From UHGV virus genome UHGV-0127376: DNA of 44,112 nt, one strand, 5' to 3'. Shown here piece after piece: positions 16,045 through 24,095 of the stretch; positions within the stretch are counted from its first letter, which is position 1; each line of letters starts with the position of its first letter. Source of the DNA: a virus. The notes beneath the pieces are model-generated. The model worked only from the letters and a program-made list of their open reading frames with translations, did not search any database and had not been told where the DNA came from. The position numbers and the translations under genes were made by a program.

Positions 16045-16405
16045 AACCAAAAATTATTATACTCGCCCTTGAGCCTCCCTCACCCTCAACGACGCCAATT
16101 GCCCCCATAGGGGGTGCCTAGCGCATAAAAGGAGGGGTGGGGTGGGTGCCTAGACGTCTAGACGGCCCTAGGGCGCTCTCTGAGGTGTGGAGCGCCACGG
16201 CAGCTAAGACCGTGGCTATAGCGGAAGCCTCAGAGGGCCTCAGTGGCTCCCTGCGCTGCGCTGGGGCTATCGCTAGTGCTGCCCCACGGCTTGGCCTGTG
16301 CGTGGCACTGAGTGGCTCCTGTGCGCTCTACGGGGCACTAGGGGCTATCCCTGTGCGCTCCCTGTGGGCCATAGGGGTGCGCTCTGCCTTGCTTATTTTG
16401 CGCGT

Positions 16406-16462
16406 CCATAGTGGGCCCGCCTAGTGCCTGCATTGTGGGGCCATAGTGGGCCTGCCTAGTGC
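16406..16462. repeat. Two 22-bp direct repeats CCATAGTGGGCC(C/T)GCCTAGTGC (16406..16427, 16441..16462) with degenerate copies at 16105..16124 and about 16369..16388
   Basis: Read directly from sequence; part of an 822-bp non-coding, repeat-rich zone 16045..16866. Confidence 0.6.
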
Positions 16463-16658
16463 GCTGTAGTGCGTCACGGTGCTATCCCTAGTATGCACTA
16501 GGCTATCCACTGGCTATCCCTAGTGCTTTACATTGTGCCGATTATATGCTACGCTGCGCGCTCCCCACTAGGGCGCACATCCTCACCCAACACTATCCCG
16601 GCGCTATCTCTTTGCTATCCCTTTGCTCTTACTTTCATTCGAAAGCTGTCATGAAATG

Positions 16659-16675
16659 ATGTTACAGGAGTAGGA
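16659..16675 (+). promoter_or_regulatory. Copy 2 of exact 17-mer ATGTTACAGGAGTAGGA (candidate phage-RNAP promoter or other regulatory site)
   Basis: Identical 17-mer also at 5640..5656 and 37846..37862. Confidence 0.3.
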
Positions 16676-16866
16676 GGGTTTTAGGGCACTATATACACAC
16701 TACTTACTACTACTCACTAGTAGTCACTAGTATCCCCTAGTAATGCCCTGTATGACTGACCGTAGGGAGGGAAGCATTACCTAGAATCTTGTAACCTCCG
16801 CTCCTATCCCTCCGGGATATCGTCGCTATGGTTACGCTACTAATCACTATGTAAGGAGATATTGTT

Positions 16867-17283
16867 GTGGCTAGAACATTTAAGATTGTGGTTGATAAGG
16901 AAGGTTATCCAGTGATTAATGGTGCTGGGCCTGAGTATGTGAATAAGCGAGGTAAGAGAGACTATAAGACTGTGGCGCTGCATAGGGCCGTGGTTATGGA
17001 TGCTCTGGGAATCACTAGCTACGGTTCTGGCTATCACGTACATCACTGTGACAGTAACCGCCTTAACTGTGACTTCAATAACCTGATACTGGTTAGCGCT
17101 GACACTCACCGGGCCATACACTTAGCACAGATTCAGGAAGGGAGATGCTTCACAAAGGATGAGTTATTGGCTAGTCCTGAGTACGATACTAACTGGCGAG
17201 AGTTCGACGTGACTTATGGGGACTACAATAGTTTACTGCACGCAGACCTTTGGGGGTCTGCTTACTCTTTTTGCTCCCAGTGA
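16867..17283 (+). CDS. HNH endonuclease
   Basis: Motif YHVHHCDSNRLNCDFNNLILVSADTHRAIH; GTG start with SD AAGGAG 9 nt upstream. Confidence 0.75.
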   Translation: MARTFKIVVDKEGYPVINGAGPEYVNKRGKRDYKTVALHRAVVMDALGITSYGSGYHVHHCDSNRLNCDFNNLILVSADTHRAIHLAQIQEGRCFTKDELLASPEYDTNWREFDVTYGDYNSLLHADLWGSAYSFCSQ

Positions 17284-17303
17284 TAAAAAGTTTAAAAAAG
17301 TAC

Positions 17304-17333
17304 TTGCTTCTTTTGGTTCAATAGGGCTATAGT
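17304..17333 (+). promoter_or_regulatory. sigma70-like promoter (TTGCTT -18- TATAGT) with A/T-rich upstream element
   Basis: -35 17304..17309, -10 17328..17333; upstream AAAAAGTTTAAAAAAG. Confidence 0.35.
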
Positions 17334-17435
17334 TCAATCACCGGGAGGCACTGAGGCGCTAACCGGGGCAGAGTCGGGAGATTCAGCCGGATTAAAGCTA
17401 GATAGTGTGAAGGGTTAGACACTCAATAAAAAGAG

Positions 17436-17464
17436 TTGACACCGCGAAGAACATAAGCTAGATT
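17436..17464 (+). promoter_or_regulatory. sigma70-like promoter (TTGACA -17- TAGATT)
   Basis: Consensus -35 at 17436..17441, 17-nt spacer, -10 at 17459..17464; A-rich upstream. Confidence 0.5.
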
Positions 17465-17504
17465 GAATCCCGAAGTAAGCAGTAAGGCAGTAAGAAATAA
17501 ACGC

Positions 17505-17533
17505 TTGACAAGTTCTGATTCACTGAGTAACTT
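17505..17533 (+). promoter_or_regulatory. sigma70-like promoter (TTGACA -17- TAACTT), weaker -10
   Basis: Consensus -35 at 17505..17510; -10 match only 3/6. Confidence 0.3.
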
Positions 17534-17883
17534 AGATAGCGAACAAGGCAAGGATAACCACTCTAGGGCGCAAGGATGTGTGTCCCGTCGGATTAGGCTA
17601 GACGTTAAAAATGACCTCTTAAAGGTTTAGTAGTAAGCTGGTTTGCGGGGAGGCCCAGTACCTTGACTGGTACGTTGACGACCCACCCCTAGACAATCAG
17701 TTAAAGAGTAAACGTGCCGGACGTTATCACCGGGGTTCTGAGACAAACCACACTGTCGAGGCGAGAGCAGCTCGCTCCTCTGAATCGAGGGAACAAGGCG
17801 CGGAGTGTATCCCGCAAAGAGCATATAACATAGCGCAGCAGTAACAAGGTTGCGCTAGATTATGTTCTCTGAGAGGTAAGAGT

Positions 17884-18081
17884 ATGCGCAAATCAAAGCG
17901 TTTAGCATTACGGCGGAATATGCAATTATCACTGAATCCCACCGACGACGTGCCGCTTACTGTGAAGCCTAGCAAACAAGGGTTGAGCAGTGAGCACAGG
18001 GTGAGGGGAAAGCAAAAACAAAAGGGCAGTAGCAGGCAGCCATCTGGATGGCCTACTGTTAACTCCCAATTTGGTCGATAA
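17884..18081 (+). CDS. Possible first early ORF (basic, low-complexity 65 aa)
   Basis: ATG with SD AGAGG upstream, downstream of the promoter cluster; composition unusual so coding status uncertain. Confidence 0.3.
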   Translation: MRKSKRLALRRNMQLSLNPTDDVPLTVKPSKQGLSSEHRVRGKQKQKGSSRQPSGWPTVNSQFGR

Positions 18082-18085
18082 TTAC

Positions 18086-18117
18086 AGCCTATAGCATCCT
18101 ACGGGGTGCTATGTGAA
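18086..18117 (+). promoter_or_regulatory. Conserved 32-bp hairpin element, copy 1 (stem 18091..18099 / 18104..18112)
   Basis: 29/32 identical to 18802..18833; 9-bp stem with 4-nt loop. Confidence 0.4.
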
Positions 18118-18152: not shown

Positions 18153-18728
18153 ATGACCCATTCAACTGGTAAAGTATTCAAGCTCACCGCTGCGGGCAGC
18201 ATTCGTAAAGCGCTGGGCGACGTAGTGGAAGCAAAGCGCAACATCACTATTAGCGCGCTCTTCCACGGCCTGATTAGCAGCAACGTTTCCTGGGCTATGG
18301 ATATGCAGCGCAGCGATGCCGCGGACTTCGATATGGTGCTGCGTACGCTGCTGCCTATCAAGTTCAACAAGGAGTCCGGCAAATACGAATTCAACGCGAA
18401 GAAGTGCTATGCGTCTGCTGAGAAGCTGGGCATCGAACTGGACACTATGCGTCTGGACTATAAACAAGCTGACAAGCAGGAGCGCGAAGTAATTGTAGCC
18501 AGCTTCTATAGCTCCTGTATGGCCCTGTACGCTGCCGAAGCGGAGCAGGTAAAGAATGACGCGCTGGATGCCGATGCAGTGCGCTTGCAAGCGCTGGGGC
18601 GCGTTAAAAACGCTATCAAGAAGGCAAAAGAGACTGGTGTAAGCGACGCTGACCTCGTGTCTATGCTGGTATCGCAGGGCGTGGATGTACGCGCTGTACT
18701 GGACGCAACTTTGAAGGCGGCGGCATGA
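18153..18728 (+). CDS. Early protein, unknown function
   Basis: 191 aa, SD AAAGAGGTG upstream; flanked by the two hairpin elements. Confidence 0.6.
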   Translation: MTHSTGKVFKLTAAGSIRKALGDVVEAKRNITISALFHGLISSNVSWAMDMQRSDAADFDMVLRTLLPIKFNKESGKYEFNAKKCYASAEKLGIELDTMRLDYKQADKQEREVIVASFYSSCMALYAAEAEQVKNDALDADAVRLQALGRVKNAIKKAKETGVSDADLVSMLVSQGVDVRAVLDATLKAAA

Positions 18729-19524: not shown

Positions 19525-19739
19525 GCAAGCAGGACATTTATGACGTATATAAGCGCCCTAATGGGTTTCTTTACCGGGTACCTCTATTTAGTCCACTGCA
19601 CGCCCTCGCAGAATTCTATGCAGAGGAGACTAGACTGTGGTTGCCGTCCAGTCACACAGTTGGCGGGGTGGTAATGCTAAGTTGTAGCACCCTTGTGGCC
19701 CGCAACGTGGTATTCAAGGATAGCGCATGCTCACAGTAG
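19521..19739 (+). CDS. Early protein, unknown function
   Basis: 72 aa ORF in translationally coupled series. Confidence 0.45.
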   Translation: MSKQDIYDVYKRPNGFLYRVPLFSPLHALAEFYAEETRLWLPSSHTVGGVVMLSCSTLVARNVVFKDSACSQ

Positions 19740-20071
19740 ACGAAACAGCGCTGCTGTGCTGGCGTCTGCTGGAAACGCAGGGCAAGTGCGGTTGCACTTG
19801 GGAAACATTCAAAGAGGTTCCTAATGAACTCAAGCAAATCGTGCCAGTTGAGCGTCGATTACTCCGAGTTAGAAAAGAGGATATTGGCACTGTTCTCACA
19901 ACCTATCGAGAGTACACTGAGTCTGCCGCGCGGAAGCTGCAAGAGCACATTGCATTCGATGTGGTTGCAGCACTACGGCGGAATGGATACCGCGGAGCTT
20001 TTAAGCAATTTAGAGCCGCAGTCCGCGCCTATTATAAGCAGCAACAACTCTCCGCGTGGTACGCACGCTGA
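19727..20071 (+). CDS. Early protein, unknown function
   Basis: 114 aa ORF, start overlaps previous stop. Confidence 0.45.
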   Translation: MLTVDETALLCWRLLETQGKCGCTWETFKEVPNELKQIVPVERRLLRVRKEDIGTVLTTYREYTESAARKLQEHIAFDVVAALRRNGYRGAFKQFRAAVRAYYKQQQLSAWYAR

Positions 20072-20111
20072 ACTCTTAGTGCATGACGAAGTTCTATTAA
20101 CTCGGGAGCAA

Positions 20112-21794
20112 ATGAAAATGCAAGAAACTAACACAGCACCTATCGAATGGAAAGTAGTGTTACCGGAAGGTGCAAACGCACTGCCGATTAAAGAATCAAT
20201 GTATTCCAGCGGTGATTACTGGACCCCGTTCCAGGACTTGCAAATGCAAGGGGAGGACCATCCCCACACTGAGGGTCCGCTGCAGGTGCTTATGGGTCTC
20301 CGCACTGTCAGTGCGCACACTCCAGGCTTAGAGGTGACTATAGGCGGGGCACTGCACCCAGAGTATCGCGAATCAACGATGACGCTCGGCCCGTTGCAAA
20401 AGGTGGACCTGTACCGGTCCGGAACTTTCTGCGAACTCTTTGAACCGGTGCGAATCACCATAGACAGCAAGTTCTGGGAACGCCGCCGCGACTTCTATGA
20501 GGGCGAGGATGTAGTGGTTGAGCGCGTAGTTGCTTGCGTCGAAGAATTCACAGGTTACAAGGTGCACAAGCAGGCCGTGCAGTTATTTGAGCGCATCATG
20601 CTTGCACCAGAAGAGCAGCAGCGCCGCTTATACACTGGCTACGATTACGGCCGCCACACCCGCGATGGCAACTTAGCTGCGCTGCTCATGAAGTTGCACG
20701 GCTTCGTAGTGTCTAGATTCGCCGTGCCTTTGGGCTTTGGTTTCCGCAACGGCGAACCTATCGTGATGCTGGGGCAGCCGCGGATGCACAAGGACTTCGC
20801 AGCAGTTACTGAGTACCGCTGCGTAGAGATGCGCGTAGGTAAGTGGCTCGCTAACTACTACGGCAATGGCGTAGACTTCCGCGATGCTATCGAAGACCTC
20901 AAGGCTATGAACGTAGACCCTACAACGTACCTGTGCAAGACCGAGCAGGAATGGTACGACGCCTACGAGAATGGCCCGGGTAGCTGCATGAGCGGGTACT
21001 CATTTGAGCATAGCTCTGTGCGGACGTACGCTACCACCAGCCACGGGTTGCCGGATAATGGGCTGCGCCTGTTCATCCAGTACACCGGGGAGCTGTTCGG
21101 CGACGATTTCGAAGTGCAGGCACGGGCAATCGTTAACACAGAAACTAACGAGTACGTCCGCGCTTACGGCAACGCTGCGGATGCAATCCTGCGGGGGCAT
21201 GGGTACACCAAAAACATTGAATGTCTCGAAGGGGTAATGCTGGCGCGAATACCGCACCCAACATACAACGGCGCAGTGCTGATGCCATACCTAGATAGCA
21301 GCCAGTGCGGCGTAGATGAGTATGGGGATGATGCCTTTGTAATCCGTGATGCTTATGAGTACGAGGCACAAGACTCAGAAGGATACATCTACGTAGGCAC
21401 TGAGTCTGCTCGGTGCTGCTGCTGTGAATGTCGCTACTCTGTAGATGACATGCAGGAGACCGCAGATGGTGATATGGTCTGCGACGGCTGCGTAGAAGAA
21501 GGGGATTTTGTGTACGTAGTTGGGCGTGATGGTCTGCATAATCGCTGGAGCTGCACCTGGTCTGATTACCACGACGCCTATGTATACGACGAGGACATAG
21601 AGCGCTGCGAAGTAGAGGGTGTAGTGCACGACCAAGAGGAACTGGTGTTTGCACAGGACCGGCAAGTGCTTATTGAGCACGCAGAAGAACACCCAGTGCA
21701 CGGGTTAATTCTCACTGAGCATGCAGCTGATTGCTTGGGAGAGAAGTACCTGGGCAACGATGAAGATGAAGAAGAAGCAGAGGAGGCAGCTTAA
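20112..21794 (+). CDS. Large early protein with Cys cluster and acidic C-terminal tail, unknown function
   Basis: 560 aa from ATG 20112 (SD GGGAG); ORF frame is open back to 19824 but that overlaps the 19727..20071 gene; CCCCECRY...CDGC cluster; C-terminus NDEDEEEAEEAA. Confidence 0.6.
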   Translation: MKMQETNTAPIEWKVVLPEGANALPIKESMYSSGDYWTPFQDLQMQGEDHPHTEGPLQVLMGLRTVSAHTPGLEVTIGGALHPEYRESTMTLGPLQKVDLYRSGTFCELFEPVRITIDSKFWERRRDFYEGEDVVVERVVACVEEFTGYKVHKQAVQLFERIMLAPEEQQRRLYTGYDYGRHTRDGNLAALLMKLHGFVVSRFAVPLGFGFRNGEPIVMLGQPRMHKDFAAVTEYRCVEMRVGKWLANYYGNGVDFRDAIEDLKAMNVDPTTYLCKTEQEWYDAYENGPGSCMSGYSFEHSSVRTYATTSHGLPDNGLRLFIQYTGELFGDDFEVQARAIVNTETNEYVRAYGNAADAILRGHGYTKNIECLEGVMLARIPHPTYNGAVLMPYLDSSQCGVDEYGDDAFVIRDAYEYEAQDSEGYIYVGTESARCCCCECRYSVDDMQETADGDMVCDGCVEEGDFVYVVGRDGLHNRWSCTWSDYHDAYVYDEDIERCEVEGVVHDQEELVFAQDRQVLIEHAEEHPVHGLILTEHAADCLGEKYLGNDEDEEEAEEAA

Positions 21795-22855
21795 TGTTCT
21801 TGAATCCGCACGGGATTGATATGCAGCTGCTCTTGCAGATACTGCAAACGCACCGGCCTAGCTGGGGTAGCACTAAGTGGTTCGAGCCGCTGCTTATGCA
21901 GTCGCTACAGGCGCTGGGTAGTGGTATGCACTACGTAAAGGACAAGCACGGGAACTACTTCGTGCTGGTGGGGGACTCAGAGCAAAGTGACGTAGCGTTT
22001 ACGTCTCATCTCGACACAGTGGCACGACCAACCAGCGCTGCGCCGGACGTCGGCTGCACTAACAAGGGCGTGCTGTTCGTAAAGAATCCGCAACAAGCTG
22101 ACTGCTTGGGCGCCGACTGCGGCGCCGGTATCTACCTGATGCTGGAGATGCTGCGGCGCGGCGTGCACGGACGCTACTGCTTCTTCGTGGATGAAGAGGT
22201 AGGCTGCGAGGGTAGCGCTGCATCGGTCAAGGATGACTCTGGATTTTGGACTGGGGTCAAGGCGATGATTAGCTTCGACCGCCGCGGCGACGGTATCATT
22301 ACGCATCAAAGGTATATGCGCTGCTGCTCTGACACCTTTGCCAAGACCCTAGCAGAGCGCCTGGGACGCACGGAGCAGCACTTGCAGAAGGGTGTTTATA
22401 CTGACTCGGCTGAGTTCGTTGGCATCATTCCTGAGTGCACCAACGTCGGTGTAGGGTACATGCACGAGCACACCCCGGATGAGGTGCTGGACCTGAACAT
22501 ACTGGGCCAGGTGCTTGAGCGGGTACTACAAGACGGCACGTTCTCGCACCTCCCTATTGAGCGGGACCCGGCAGTAGCAGAGCCAGACCTATGCCAGTGG
22601 CTCGCTGCATCGACGCTCAGTTTACGGCAGCCGTGGGATATGCCGCCGGACGAGGACCCGCAGTTACTGGCCGCGTTCCGGGAAGTATCGCAGCTTTCTA
22701 AACAACAACTGGTTAGCTGGGTACAGGAGAATCCAGAGAAGGCGGCGGAGTACATAATGGTGTTCTCCGATTACGGCTTTAAAGAAGAACTGATTGAACT
22801 AGGCACCCGAGTCGTAGAAGACTGGGGCGGATACGATAATATTGTGGAGGGTTGA
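21794..22855 (+). CDS. Putative Zn-metallopeptidase / amidohydrolase-like protein (M20/M28-type motif order)
   Basis: Ordered motifs SHLDTV, GADCGAG, DEEVGCEGS, SFDRRGDG, HEHTPDE resemble H-x-D ... D ... EE ... D ... H metal ligands of the M20/M28 fold; unverified. Confidence 0.4.
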   Translation: MFLNPHGIDMQLLLQILQTHRPSWGSTKWFEPLLMQSLQALGSGMHYVKDKHGNYFVLVGDSEQSDVAFTSHLDTVARPTSAAPDVGCTNKGVLFVKNPQQADCLGADCGAGIYLMLEMLRRGVHGRYCFFVDEEVGCEGSAASVKDDSGFWTGVKAMISFDRRGDGIITHQRYMRCCSDTFAKTLAERLGRTEQHLQKGVYTDSAEFVGIIPECTNVGVGYMHEHTPDEVLDLNILGQVLERVLQDGTFSHLPIERDPAVAEPDLCQWLAASTLSLRQPWDMPPDEDPQLLAAFREVSQLSKQQLVSWVQENPEKAAEYIMVFSDYGFKEELIELGTRVVEDWGGYDNIVEG

Positions 22856-22857
22856 TT

Positions 22858-23304
22858 ATGTCTAAACTTTTTAAAGTAGGTGATAAGGTTCAGCGCATCA
22901 ATAAGATTGAAGGTAAGACCGTGCGCGGCGAGATAGTCACTAAGGGGCCTGGCCTCTATATAGACATCAAGCTAACCGAAGGCGCAGGGATTCATTATGC
23001 CGGGGATATCTATGGCGGCTCTGCCGACTTCTGGCAGCTAATCGAGGAGGCGGACGAGCTGCCACCGGTTCCGTCTAGTGTAGCATATTTAAACACTAAA
23101 CGAGACCCAGGAAACGACCAGCGGCTGGTATTAGAAAAGGACAGCGAGACTAACGAAGGACTACTATACATCGGAATAGTGCCTAGAAAAGGCAGCACCC
23201 GGGCAGAGCGAGAGATTGGTATTAATATGAGCCCCGATTCAGCCCTGCAGTTGGCACATGACATTCGTCGAATGGCTATGAAAGTTAAGCGAGAGATTCA
23301 GTAA
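22858..23304 (+). CDS. Early/middle protein, unknown function
   Basis: ATG 22858 with SD GGAGG; ORF-track start 22852 is TTG. Confidence 0.55.
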   Translation: MSKLFKVGDKVQRINKIEGKTVRGEIVTKGPGLYIDIKLTEGAGIHYAGDIYGGSADFWQLIEEADELPPVPSSVAYLNTKRDPGNDQRLVLEKDSETNEGLLYIGIVPRKGSTRAEREIGINMSPDSALQLAHDIRRMAMKVKREIQ

Positions 23305-24095
23305 TGGACCAGCCCTGGCTTAGAGCGTGCAAGCGCCTGGCCGTTGGGCAGAGGGCGCGCTTTCGGTGCTGCGGCAGGGACGCCGCCGGGGTGCTCTACA
23401 ATAACCCGGATGCCTGGGAATATTATTGCCACCGCTGCAAACAGGTGGGCAAGGAGCACAAGCAGTACCAGCGCATACAGTTACAGGAAGAGCCGAGGGT
23501 GCAGCCCTCTGCACCTGCAGATGCAATTTGCATTAGCCAAGCGCCTGCGGAAACGCAGAGTTTTCTTTACGGATTCCTGACCACAAAGGGAATCATGCCT
23601 GAAATGGTGGAGGATGCAGAATGGAGCAAAGAGAAACAGCGGATAATATTCCGTGTCGGAAGCGCTGCTCTGGGCCGTGCAGTGCATGCCCGACAGCAAC
23701 CGAAGTGGGTAATGTACGGCCAGCCAATGCCGTTCGCTGCCGCGGCACCTGCCGTAGCGCCGGATGTAGCTGCGGCCGCACCTCTAAAGGTCGTGCTCAC
23801 CGAGGACTATCTATCAGCGATCAAATATCAGCACGCGATTACGAACTACTCTGCAATGAACGTGCAGGCTATAGCTATGCTGGGTACTCGCTTGCCCGTG
23901 CAGTTAAGGGCGTGGCTGATACAGAACAAACCGACAGTGATACTGTCCCTGGATAATGACCAAGCGGGACACTCCGGCGCGGCCATGATACGGCGCGCGC
24001 TACGTCCCTTTATGTCGTGCCACGAAATCTACTACGACGGGGACCCAAAAGAGGCAACAATACAGGAGTTATTAGATGGTATTAGGCGCGTGTAA
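23304..24095 (+). CDS. DNA primase (zinc-binding + TOPRIM)
   Basis: N-terminal Cys motifs (RFRCCGRD ... YCHRCKQ) and TOPRIM-like VLTEDYLSA / ILSLDNDQAGHSGA. Confidence 0.8.
   Translation: MDQPWLRACKRLAVGQRARFRCCGRDAAGVLYNNPDAWEYYCHRCKQVGKEHKQYQRIQLQEEPRVQPSAPADAICISQAPAETQSFLYGFLTTKGIMPEMVEDAEWSKEKQRIIFRVGSAALGRAVHARQQPKWVMYGQPMPFAAAAPAVAPDVAAAAPLKVVLTEDYLSAIKYQHAITNYSAMNVQAIAMLGTRLPVQLRAWLIQNKPTVILSLDNDQAGHSGAAMIRRALRPFMSCHEIYYDGDPKEATIQELLDGIRRV

Follow-up and report, generated by a model that had tools for sequence, protein, structure and literature searches.

The window analysed here is the 44,112-nucleotide viral genome UHGV-0127376, the genome of a Klebsiella phage of the genus Drulisvirus (KP34-like; Autographiviridae, Slopekvirinae), in which a large early gene on the + strand ends at position 21794 and runs directly into a peptidase gene. 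On sequence comparison, the product of the large gene belongs to a widespread and previously undescribed protein family. A preliminary description of this DNA had treated the gene as standing alone; we find it tightly linked to the downstream peptidase gene across phages and prophages. We tentatively propose a conserved two-gene phage module in which this protein is the component other than the peptidase; most likely it is an enzyme that depends on Cys and would work together with the peptidase.

The large gene and its peptidase partner

The reading frame is open over 19824..21794 (+ strand) for 656 amino acids (aa), and the ATG at 20112 within it yields the 560-aa protein originally described. 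Residues are numbered below from the Met encoded at 20118 (558-aa form), to which the long form adds 98. The protein is multidomain, has a size of 63-74 kDa and is strongly acidic, with an isoelectric point (pI) of 4.5 and 101 Asp and Glu residues against 45 Lys and Arg.

Neither this protein nor diverse members of its family matched Pfam, NCBIfam or PADLOC, and PADLOC likewise gave no match for the partner peptidase or for the prophage and jumbo-phage members. In PHROGs the protein falls in phrog_6980, with a weaker match to phrog_13313, both of unknown function. Searches of the PDB by sequence and by profile returned zinc-finger matches at chance level only, and literature searches found no functional study of the gene or of the gene pair. 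Its original label of uncharacterised holds good, as no homology to a known enzyme is detectable in Pfam, NCBIfam, PADLOC or the PDB. The gene is expressed, since its orthologue Gp12 (annotated as 556 aa) in the Drulisvirus fHe-Kpn01 was found by LC-MS/MS of gradient-purified phage, together with the peptidase Gp13 and with Gp14 (PMC7291057). The authors of that study obtained 'no significant hits' for Gp12 with HHpred, and left it out of their toxicity screen because it had been detected by LC-MS/MS of purified phage (PMC7291057). Neither of the observations that the preliminary description had named as decisive against it, confident homology to a known enzyme family or lack of expression, was thus made: the libraries gave no homology, and Gp12 was detected.

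The partner gene and its translation signal are located as follows.

21794..22855, + strand: partner gene, clan MH (M28/M20/M42-like) di-zinc exopeptidase, 353 aa (Pfam Peptidase_M28; phrog_4191, 'peptidase')
21781..21786, + strand: AGGAGG Shine-Dalgarno sequence of the peptidase gene, read from the sequence, within the Glu-Glu-Ala tail codons of the large gene

The stop codon of the large gene (TAA, 21792-21794) and the ATG of the peptidase gene at 21794 overlap by one base, and, judged by this layout, the large gene is translationally coupled to the peptidase gene. The partner scores 23 bits against Pfam Peptidase_M28 (cut-off 21.3), and its homologues score 26.7-33.1 bits. Residues H72, D74, D108, E134, E135, D162 and H226 are invariant in five homologues of 29-55% identity and constitute the full expected co-catalytic di-zinc set. 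In the PDB, the partner profile matched PepT 3gb0 (2e-8), a tripeptidase, TET1 and PepD, the PepT alignment spanning the HxD, GADD and EE motifs, and a published HHpred search with the fHe-Kpn01 orthologue gave DapE at 99.8% (PMC7291057). Its sequence identifies the partner as a catalytically intact clan-MH exopeptidase.

A family gene directly followed by a homologous peptidase gene was found in Peggy (a Cronobacter phage), OWB (a Vibrio Maculvirus), Nobby (a Pectobacterium phage) and BDU-MI-1, an unrelated Bradyrhizobium phage of 121 kb; the two peptidases tested are 40% (Nobby) and 35% (BDU-MI-1) identical to that of the window. When IMG/VR was scanned with the peptidase as query, a family gene adjoined the peptidase in 33 of 43 distant loci, on contigs of 5-476 kb, and three of the ten negatives were without upstream sequence. 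The family gene lies upstream in 26 of these 33 pairs, and in seven a version of ~330 aa, devoid of the zinc ribbon described below, lies directly downstream. The same query against GTDB gave the pair in 22 of 31 loci, the negatives being mostly on truncated contigs, with hosts among the Alpha-, Beta- and Gammaproteobacteria, Bacteroidota, Spirochaetota, Saccharibacteria, Acidobacteriota and Actinomycetota. Two chromosomal loci that were examined proved to be prophages, near which tail-collar, integrase and ribonucleotide reductase genes occur, and one Pasteurella element has the pair flanked by a VapE-like primase and an SNF2 helicase.

The linkage was also recovered in the reverse direction, with a co-occurrence of about 80% either way. 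The peptidase is present in the available flank of 66 of 96 motif-defined family loci from IMG/VR; 16 of the 30 negatives have less than 1 kb of downstream sequence, and ~82% of the loci with room for a peptidase have it. The peptidase-less family loci showed no recurring alternative partner, and in the loci scanned no other gene was consistently linked to the pair. The 114-aa and 191-aa early genes were considered as a third universal component and rejected, being confined to Autographiviridae relatives. As the linkage is bidirectional, no other gene shares it and these early genes are so confined, we take the pair to be a functional unit.

The family core and the zinc ribbon

An exhaustive HMMER search of 1.84 billion cluster representatives returned 282 relatives at E<=1e-3, 48 of them at E<=1e-10; nearly all align across residues 225-475, with a common core of ~230 aa, and in 87% of the representatives the core is followed by a C4 zinc ribbon. 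By tblastn against 50,697 phage genomes, the family is found in phages of Klebsiella, Vibrio, Pectobacterium, Escherichia, Shigella, Cronobacter, Pseudomonas and Bradyrhizobium. Conservation was assessed on an alignment of 138 family representatives sharing 20-65% identity. S289, C290 and R336 are invariant in this alignment, M291, Y350, Y391 and D393 are at least 98% conserved, and Y283, G286, Y304, L358, G362, G372, P390 and G422 at least 90%. The resulting consensus reads VY..GP.SCM ... HP..VYA ... ARA.VN...K.Y.R.YG ... GY ... PY.DG ... CxxC-18-CxxC. Its first motif is diagnostic, since all 96 stretches that a DNA pattern derived from VY..GP.SCM by back-translation picked out of IMG/VR were true family genes. 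The core is also the region of strongest purifying selection in the genus (variable sites at codon positions 1/2/3 = 0.33/0.30/0.89).

This handful of invariant polar residues in an otherwise divergent domain looks like an active site or a ligand pocket. The initial remark that the protein carries no recognisable catalytic motif was therefore misleading, given an invariant Ser-Cys and Arg and a near-invariant Met, Tyr and Tyr-x-Asp across the family.

The domain layout of the protein is as follows.

20118..20450, + strand: residues 1-111, short N-terminal strands and then a highly variable, low-confidence insertion (44-111)
20451..20717, + strand: helical region, residues 112-200 (AlphaFold secondary structure; predicted local distance difference test, pLDDT, 85-94)
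20718..21413, + strand: alpha/beta core, residues 201-432, family-defining, of a topology that may be remotely GNAT-like
20964..20990, + strand: signature motif Y-x-x-G-P-x-S-C-M, residues 283-291, with S289 and C290 invariant
21414..21491, + strand: predicted C4 zinc ribbon, C433-x2-C436 ... C455-x2-C458 (conservation; beta-hairpin model)
21498..21716, + strand: beta-hairpin repeat region, residues 461-533 (AlphaFold, pLDDT >95)
21717..21791, + strand: C-terminal helix ILTE.A..LG..Y and then the acidic tail, NDEDEEEAEEAA, at 21756-21791

An AlphaFold2 model of the whole protein, computed with the family alignment, has a mean pLDDT of 84 and a predicted template modelling score (pTM) of 0.73, with pLDDT above 90 across residues 270-540; the core alone reaches a pLDDT of 94 and a pTM of 0.84. 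Residues 64-111 fall below a pLDDT of 50, and the amino acid varies within the genus at 85% of these columns.

A Zn-ribbon-like cluster, CCCCECRY...CDGC, had been noted in the preliminary description; the cluster is present, and its two halves are separated by 14 residues, not by 17 as had been stated. It is not a chance feature, because all four ribbon cysteines (C433, C436, C455 and C458) are each 86-88% conserved among the representatives; the extra cysteines at 434, 435 and 438 are lineage-specific. The two CxxC knuckles lie on modelled beta-hairpins with a pLDDT near 90 or above, and the region gives weak matches to LIM and treble-clef profiles. Conservation and model agree with the zinc-ribbon reading, metal binding being predicted.

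Foldseek against BFVD recovered only uncharacterised phage proteins as relatives (Shigella phage Buco, Vibrio phage DE17, Pectobacterium phages Nobby and CB5, a P. putida phage, Caulobacter phage Lullwater and marine phages). Local matches of ~120 columns to other kinds of phage protein, one named amidoligase, probably correspond to the zinc-ribbon/hairpin module; the matches named 'PcfJ-like' and 'amidoligase' were not used, being too weak or too local. The GNAT motif A (Q/R-x-x-G-x-G/A) is absent at the beta4-alpha3 junction, where the family consensus is G-[RK]-[YFW]-L (G241, K242, W243). The protein has no GNAT profile match in Pfam or NCBIfam, and Acetyltransf_6 was matched by one of 84 family members (E=0.05).

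The ~330-aa version of the family (L106, L111, L117, L123-L125, L136 and L141, on IMG/VR contigs of 5.6-476 kb) keeps the SCM, R and PYLD motifs and the acidic tail; it is placed directly downstream of the peptidase gene, within a block that includes a PhoH-like ATPase. The related contigs L116, L138 and L143 have the peptidase and not the ~330-aa family gene.

In the two-gene module that we tentatively propose, the core would be an enzyme or a tight ligand-binding domain using Cys290 (Cys388 in the long form), and the two proteins would act early in infection on one substrate stream, whether of a peptide, of a conjugate of an amino acid or of a protein terminus. Acyl, aminoacyl or peptidyl transfer, or else thiol-dependent cleavage, would fall to one partner, and trimming as an exopeptidase or deacylase to the other. 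Targeting would be the task of the zinc ribbon and hairpin domain, and the acidic Ala-Ala tail would act as a partner-docking or ssrA-like turnover signal. What we infer is the activity as an enzyme, the kind of substrate, the function of the tail, the shared pathway and the catalytic part played by Cys290.

Several points weigh against this proposal. Some 18% of the family genes whose flanks are long enough lack a nearby peptidase, so that the partner is not obligatory, and adjacency could mean no more than co-regulation. Rather than being a nucleophile, the invariant Cys could have a structural or metal-binding role, and the active-site reading draws on conservation, not on a clustering of the residues in the model coordinates. 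A bolder form of the proposal, possible and more doubtful, is that the pair is an unrecognised class of phage host-takeover or counter-defence module. A new Cys-dependent family, GNAT-like only at a distance, with zinc-ribbon targeting and a dedicated di-zinc exopeptidase would then rewrite protein termini, for example to introduce degrons or remove them, or would form or break down a small molecule linked to a peptide or amino acid, an immune signal for instance. Lytic as well as temperate phages, with hosts in many bacterial phyla, would use the module, and in Drulisvirus the enzyme would moreover come from a gene overprinting the one upstream of it.

The acidic tail and other readings of the gene

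The acidic C-terminal tail reported earlier is confirmed, with Asp or Glu at 10 of the last 12 residues. It is kept in relatives down to ~30% identity, often with an EEAA end. Among the 138 representatives, the C-terminus is Ala-Ala in 47 and Ala in 67, where composition leads one to expect 0.8 Ala-Ala ends (binomial p ~1e-69); the family endings include LAA, VAA, IAA, QAA, KAA and EAA. All 43 unique Drulisvirus orthologues end in AA, the two preceding residues being EE, QE, EG or GE. The embedded Shine-Dalgarno sequence could favour Glu-Ala codons in Drulisvirus. An Ala-Ala tail as its mere by-product was rejected, as AA is also found where no peptidase follows (L121, L156), and a tie between AA and the presence of the peptidase was dropped (AA in 19 of 66 with peptidase vs 2 of 13 without). 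From these two results, the terminal Ala-Ala is a protein-level feature of part of the family. ClpX recognises the ssrA tag mainly by its C-terminal Ala-Ala carboxylate, so that the tail may reasonably be supposed to be a turnover signal; a partner-docking element is another hypothesis.

Ala-Ala ends were also seen in other proteins. Among 56 selected + strand open reading frames (ORFs) of the window, two have this end, the large protein and the 191-aa early protein (18153..18728, ...LKAAA); among homologues of the latter in Maculvirus and Phimunavirus phages, that of Nobby ends ...PDAA and the Vibrio ones do not end in AA. In a group resembling the Bradyrhizobium phage (L068, L112, L113, L114 and L120), a protein of 706-778 aa right after the peptidase has an acidic AA tail, and that of L068 (4213..6336) is annotated rIIA. 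Several other proteins of these contigs share this kind of end, and in total 35 of 312 large + strand ORFs end in AA. C-terminal Ala-Ala may be a wider signal in some phages.

The tail bears most directly on the foremost alternative, which we consider unlikely: that the protein is a non-catalytic partner. It would regulate the peptidase, serve it as an adaptor or be its substrate, or act as a decoy or adaptor for host ClpXP; the tail would be the functional element, either docking in the active site of the peptidase or acting as an ssrA-like degron, and the core would only bind a host target. The excess of Ala-Ala and Ala ends, their presence in every Drulisvirus orthologue and in loci without a following peptidase, the many ssrA-like LAA, VAA and IAA ends and the commonness of acidic tails in the family all fit such a role. 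However, only some third of the family members have Ala-Ala at the end, no clear tie to the presence of the peptidase is seen, and the window has Glu before AA and not a hydrophobic residue. Part of the Glu-Ala pattern may moreover be imposed by the embedded Shine-Dalgarno sequence, and the invariant polar residues of the core look more like an active site than an interaction surface.

It is improbable that the protein is virion-associated, packaged with the peptidase and ejected into the cell. Gp12, Gp13 and Gp14 were all present in the gradient-purified fHe-Kpn01 particles, and the pair lies beside tail-collar genes in two prophages. However, the same preparation gave 29 of 56 proteins (with two or more unique peptides and >5% coverage), and its authors consider some of them carry-over (PMC7291057). 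The gene also belongs to the early region transcribed by the host and is distant from the structural module, and the tail genes of the prophages are on the opposite strand. Gp14 is the orthologue of the ORF that follows the peptidase gene in the window (22852..23304, 150 aa, TTG start), which covers only positions 205-353 of the 455-position phrog_4317, of unknown function; in the fHe-Kpn01 data, Gp14 was detected by mass spectrometry and had a weak HHpred match to type 2 dihydrofolate reductase.

Slightly less probable again is a DNA mimic or anti-restriction protein. Public records name the protein 'hypothetical protein', with the single exception of 'putative DNA mimic protein' in the GenBank record of KPPK108.1, and both its acidity and its early position would suit that name. 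Yet no similarity to Ocr, ArdA or other mimics was found in any library searched, a protein of this size with several domains, enzyme-like invariant residues and a zinc ribbon does not resemble one, and an obligate-looking pairing with a peptidase is atypical of mimics. The peptidase is equally acidic (pI 4.8), so that acidity is not distinctive.

The 3-kb region around the gene matched 247 phage records, nearly all of Klebsiella phages of Drulisvirus, with a top identity of 95%. In the annotated relative BUCT631, the gene order is small hypotheticals, the 114-aa gene, the large hypothetical, 'peptidase', small genes, DNA primase, helicase and DNA polymerase, and the primase of the window (23304..24095) is supported by Toprim and PHROG matches; the early placement of the gene, between small early genes and the primase, was thus correct. 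The role drawn from it, that of a replication accessory whose acidic tail contacts the phage DNA polymerase as in T7 gp2.5 and gp4, is the least probable of the readings considered, and very unlikely. The acidity of the tail, the replication genes just downstream and the position of the Pasteurella pair agree with it, but the protein ends in Ala-Ala and not in an aromatic residue, library scans detected no OB-fold, helicase, single-stranded DNA-binding protein (SSB) or other replication domain, the conserved partner is a peptidase and no replication gene, the pair is also found beside rIIA and at prophage ends between tail-fibre and integrase genes, and the family occurs in phages with unrelated replication modules. 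The linkage to the peptidase gene speaks for a module of two enzymes, as against a replication accessory of the T7 kind. A host-takeover role, the other one suggested at first for the gene, is possible. None of the alternatives explains the gene pair as well as the Cys-dependent enzyme working with the peptidase.

Three further observations concern the genome and its relatives. The interval 16100..18100 has few ORFs and a lower G+C content (0.48 at 17001-18000); a strong promoter-like site lies at 17436-17464, and a hairpin resembling a terminator at 17242-17261. These features fit the left genome end and early promoter region, and the window is therefore a circularly permuted whole genome. 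In records OR532808, OR287808, OR532832, PQ133627 and MZ208805, the Drulisvirus match to the region of the large gene is broken into two pieces. In record NKA196 the annotation under the match includes an HNH endonuclease, a sign that homing endonucleases may have inserted near the gene.

Start site and comparison with known systems

The features around the start of the large gene are the following.

19727..20071, + strand: 114-aa gene (phrog_6167, function unknown), conserved; its 3' two-thirds are overlapped by the long form
19824..21794, + strand: long form of the large coding sequence, 656 aa and stop; probable true or major frame, kept stop-free
19824..20117, + strand: N-terminal extension of 98 codons, fast-evolving, with no visible amino-acid constraint, staying open
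19814..19817, + strand: GAGG, Shine-Dalgarno-like site 6 nucleotides (nt) before ATG 19824
20104..20120, + strand: GGGAG and then ATG 20118, possible internal start (558-aa isoform); ATG and GGAG in most relatives

The upstream open frame and its overlap with 19727..20071 had already been pointed out, and both are real, as was the caution that the start is unsettled. The long form overlaps the 114-aa gene in the other (+1) frame over 248 nt. The 114-aa protein is conserved in six Drulisvirus relatives and 32-44% identical in Peggy, OWB, Nobby and L064, its homologues were found only in Autographiviridae relatives, and comparison of these proteins indicates that the gene is genuine. Of the candidate starts, ATG 20112 is present in only part of the genus and ATG 20118 in nearly all members, with GGAG 9-10 nt upstream. 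At the upstream start, AAAGAGG-N6-ATG is kept in the window and in L001-L006, and AGGAG-N7-ATG occurs at the same place in Peggy and L064.

Besides the wide presence of ATG 20118 and its GGAG, three observations favour this start. The 114-aa protein is well conserved in the six Drulisvirus relatives and the translation of the extension is not; it is the third codon position of the 114-aa gene that evolves fast within 19824-20071; and more distant relatives (P0123-P0128) begin at the position of ATG 20118. ATG 20118 as the sole start was at first favoured, and this view was revised after tests of frame openness and of indels. For the former, synonymous codons of the 114-aa gene were resampled and stops counted in the overlapping frame: 3.2-4.0 stops are expected in the overlap and none is observed, with a probability of 0.0015-0.008 in the window and in each of six relatives (71-90% nucleotide identity). 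Genome-wide, the resampling is roughly calibrated (582 stops observed vs 658 expected), with the caveat that 4.5% of 83-codon windows are stop-free. The frame is open in 36 of 37 unique sequences of the genus. The spacer from the 114-aa stop to ATG 20118 measures 51, 54, 48 or 39 nt, all multiples of three, and its substitutions are without codon-position bias.

In Peggy and another relative, whose large proteins are 38-48% identical, a Shine-Dalgarno sequence, an ATG inside the 114-aa homologue and a 79-codon stop-free overlap are likewise present, the probability of no stop in these overlaps being 0.09 and 0.015. In Maculvirus and Phimunavirus the two genes are adjacent and do not overlap. 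ATG 20118 is replaced by AAG in L002 (Klebsiella virus 2019KP1), and GGAG is lost in P252; unless there is a sequencing error, only the upstream start would be usable in 2019KP1. The extension frame thus appears to be kept open by selection. We consider it probable that the 656-aa form is translated from ATG 19824, overprinting the 3' two-thirds of the 114-aa gene, and the internal start at 20118 may give an additional 558-aa isoform. GenBank records disagree on the start (556-562, 610 and 655 aa; the phrog_6980 profile is 655 long), and several omit the 114-aa gene, so that both the start and this unannotated gene are matters for the annotation of public records.

Should the favoured reading be true, one of the largest 'hypothetical' genes in the therapeutically important Drulisvirus, with its hundreds of isolates, would be half of a two-enzyme module that jumbo phages also carry, as do prophages of Proteobacteria, Bacteroidota, Acidobacteriota, Saccharibacteria and further groups. 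A module so widespread and yet outside Pfam, NCBIfam and PADLOC would likely perform a general step of phage-host conflict or host takeover. The invariant Cys and Arg, the near-invariant Asp, the predictable active site of the partner, the conserved Ala-Ala tail and the clear genetic unit offer experimental handles.

Compared with known systems, the tail resembles those of T7 gp2.5 and gp4 in its run of Asp and Glu at the extreme C-terminus, near replication genes. Those tails require a C-terminal aromatic residue (Phe) for polymerase binding. In contrast, the present protein ends in Ala-Ala, as do all 43 orthologues, is neither an SSB nor a helicase and has a peptidase as its partner, and the analogy drawn in the preliminary description does not hold. 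The ssrA degron (ClpX C-motif 1, ...LAA-COOH) is similar in that the family is enriched in terminal Ala-Ala-COOH with many LAA, VAA and IAA ends; it differs in that the window has acidic residues before AA, with Glu at -3 where ssrA has Leu, and in that only about one third of the family ends in Ala-Ala, some relatives having L, V or I at -3. The in-frame starts at 19824 and 20118, each with a Shine-Dalgarno-like site, recall dual-start genes such as T7 gene 4A/4B. Here, unlike in that case, the long form also overlaps a different and older gene by 248 nt, and the isoforms are predicted.

As for the core, the GNAT superfamily (N-acetyltransferases; FemA/FemX, ATE1, N-myristoyltransferase) is among the nearest systems, though the modelled topology may be only remotely alike. 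For the pair as a whole, a close parallel is with operons of clan MH enzymes (PepT, PepD, TET, DapE/ArgE), as the downstream gene encodes a member of the clan with all metal ligands intact. The present module differs from them in that the large protein is not a recognisable acyltransferase and that the pair is found in phages and prophages, not in biosynthetic operons. In protect/deprotect pathways (ArgA/ArgE, DapD/DapE), clan MH deacylases often have an acyltransferase as partner, and this pairing provides a functional analogy for a transferase-like protein beside an MH hydrolase.

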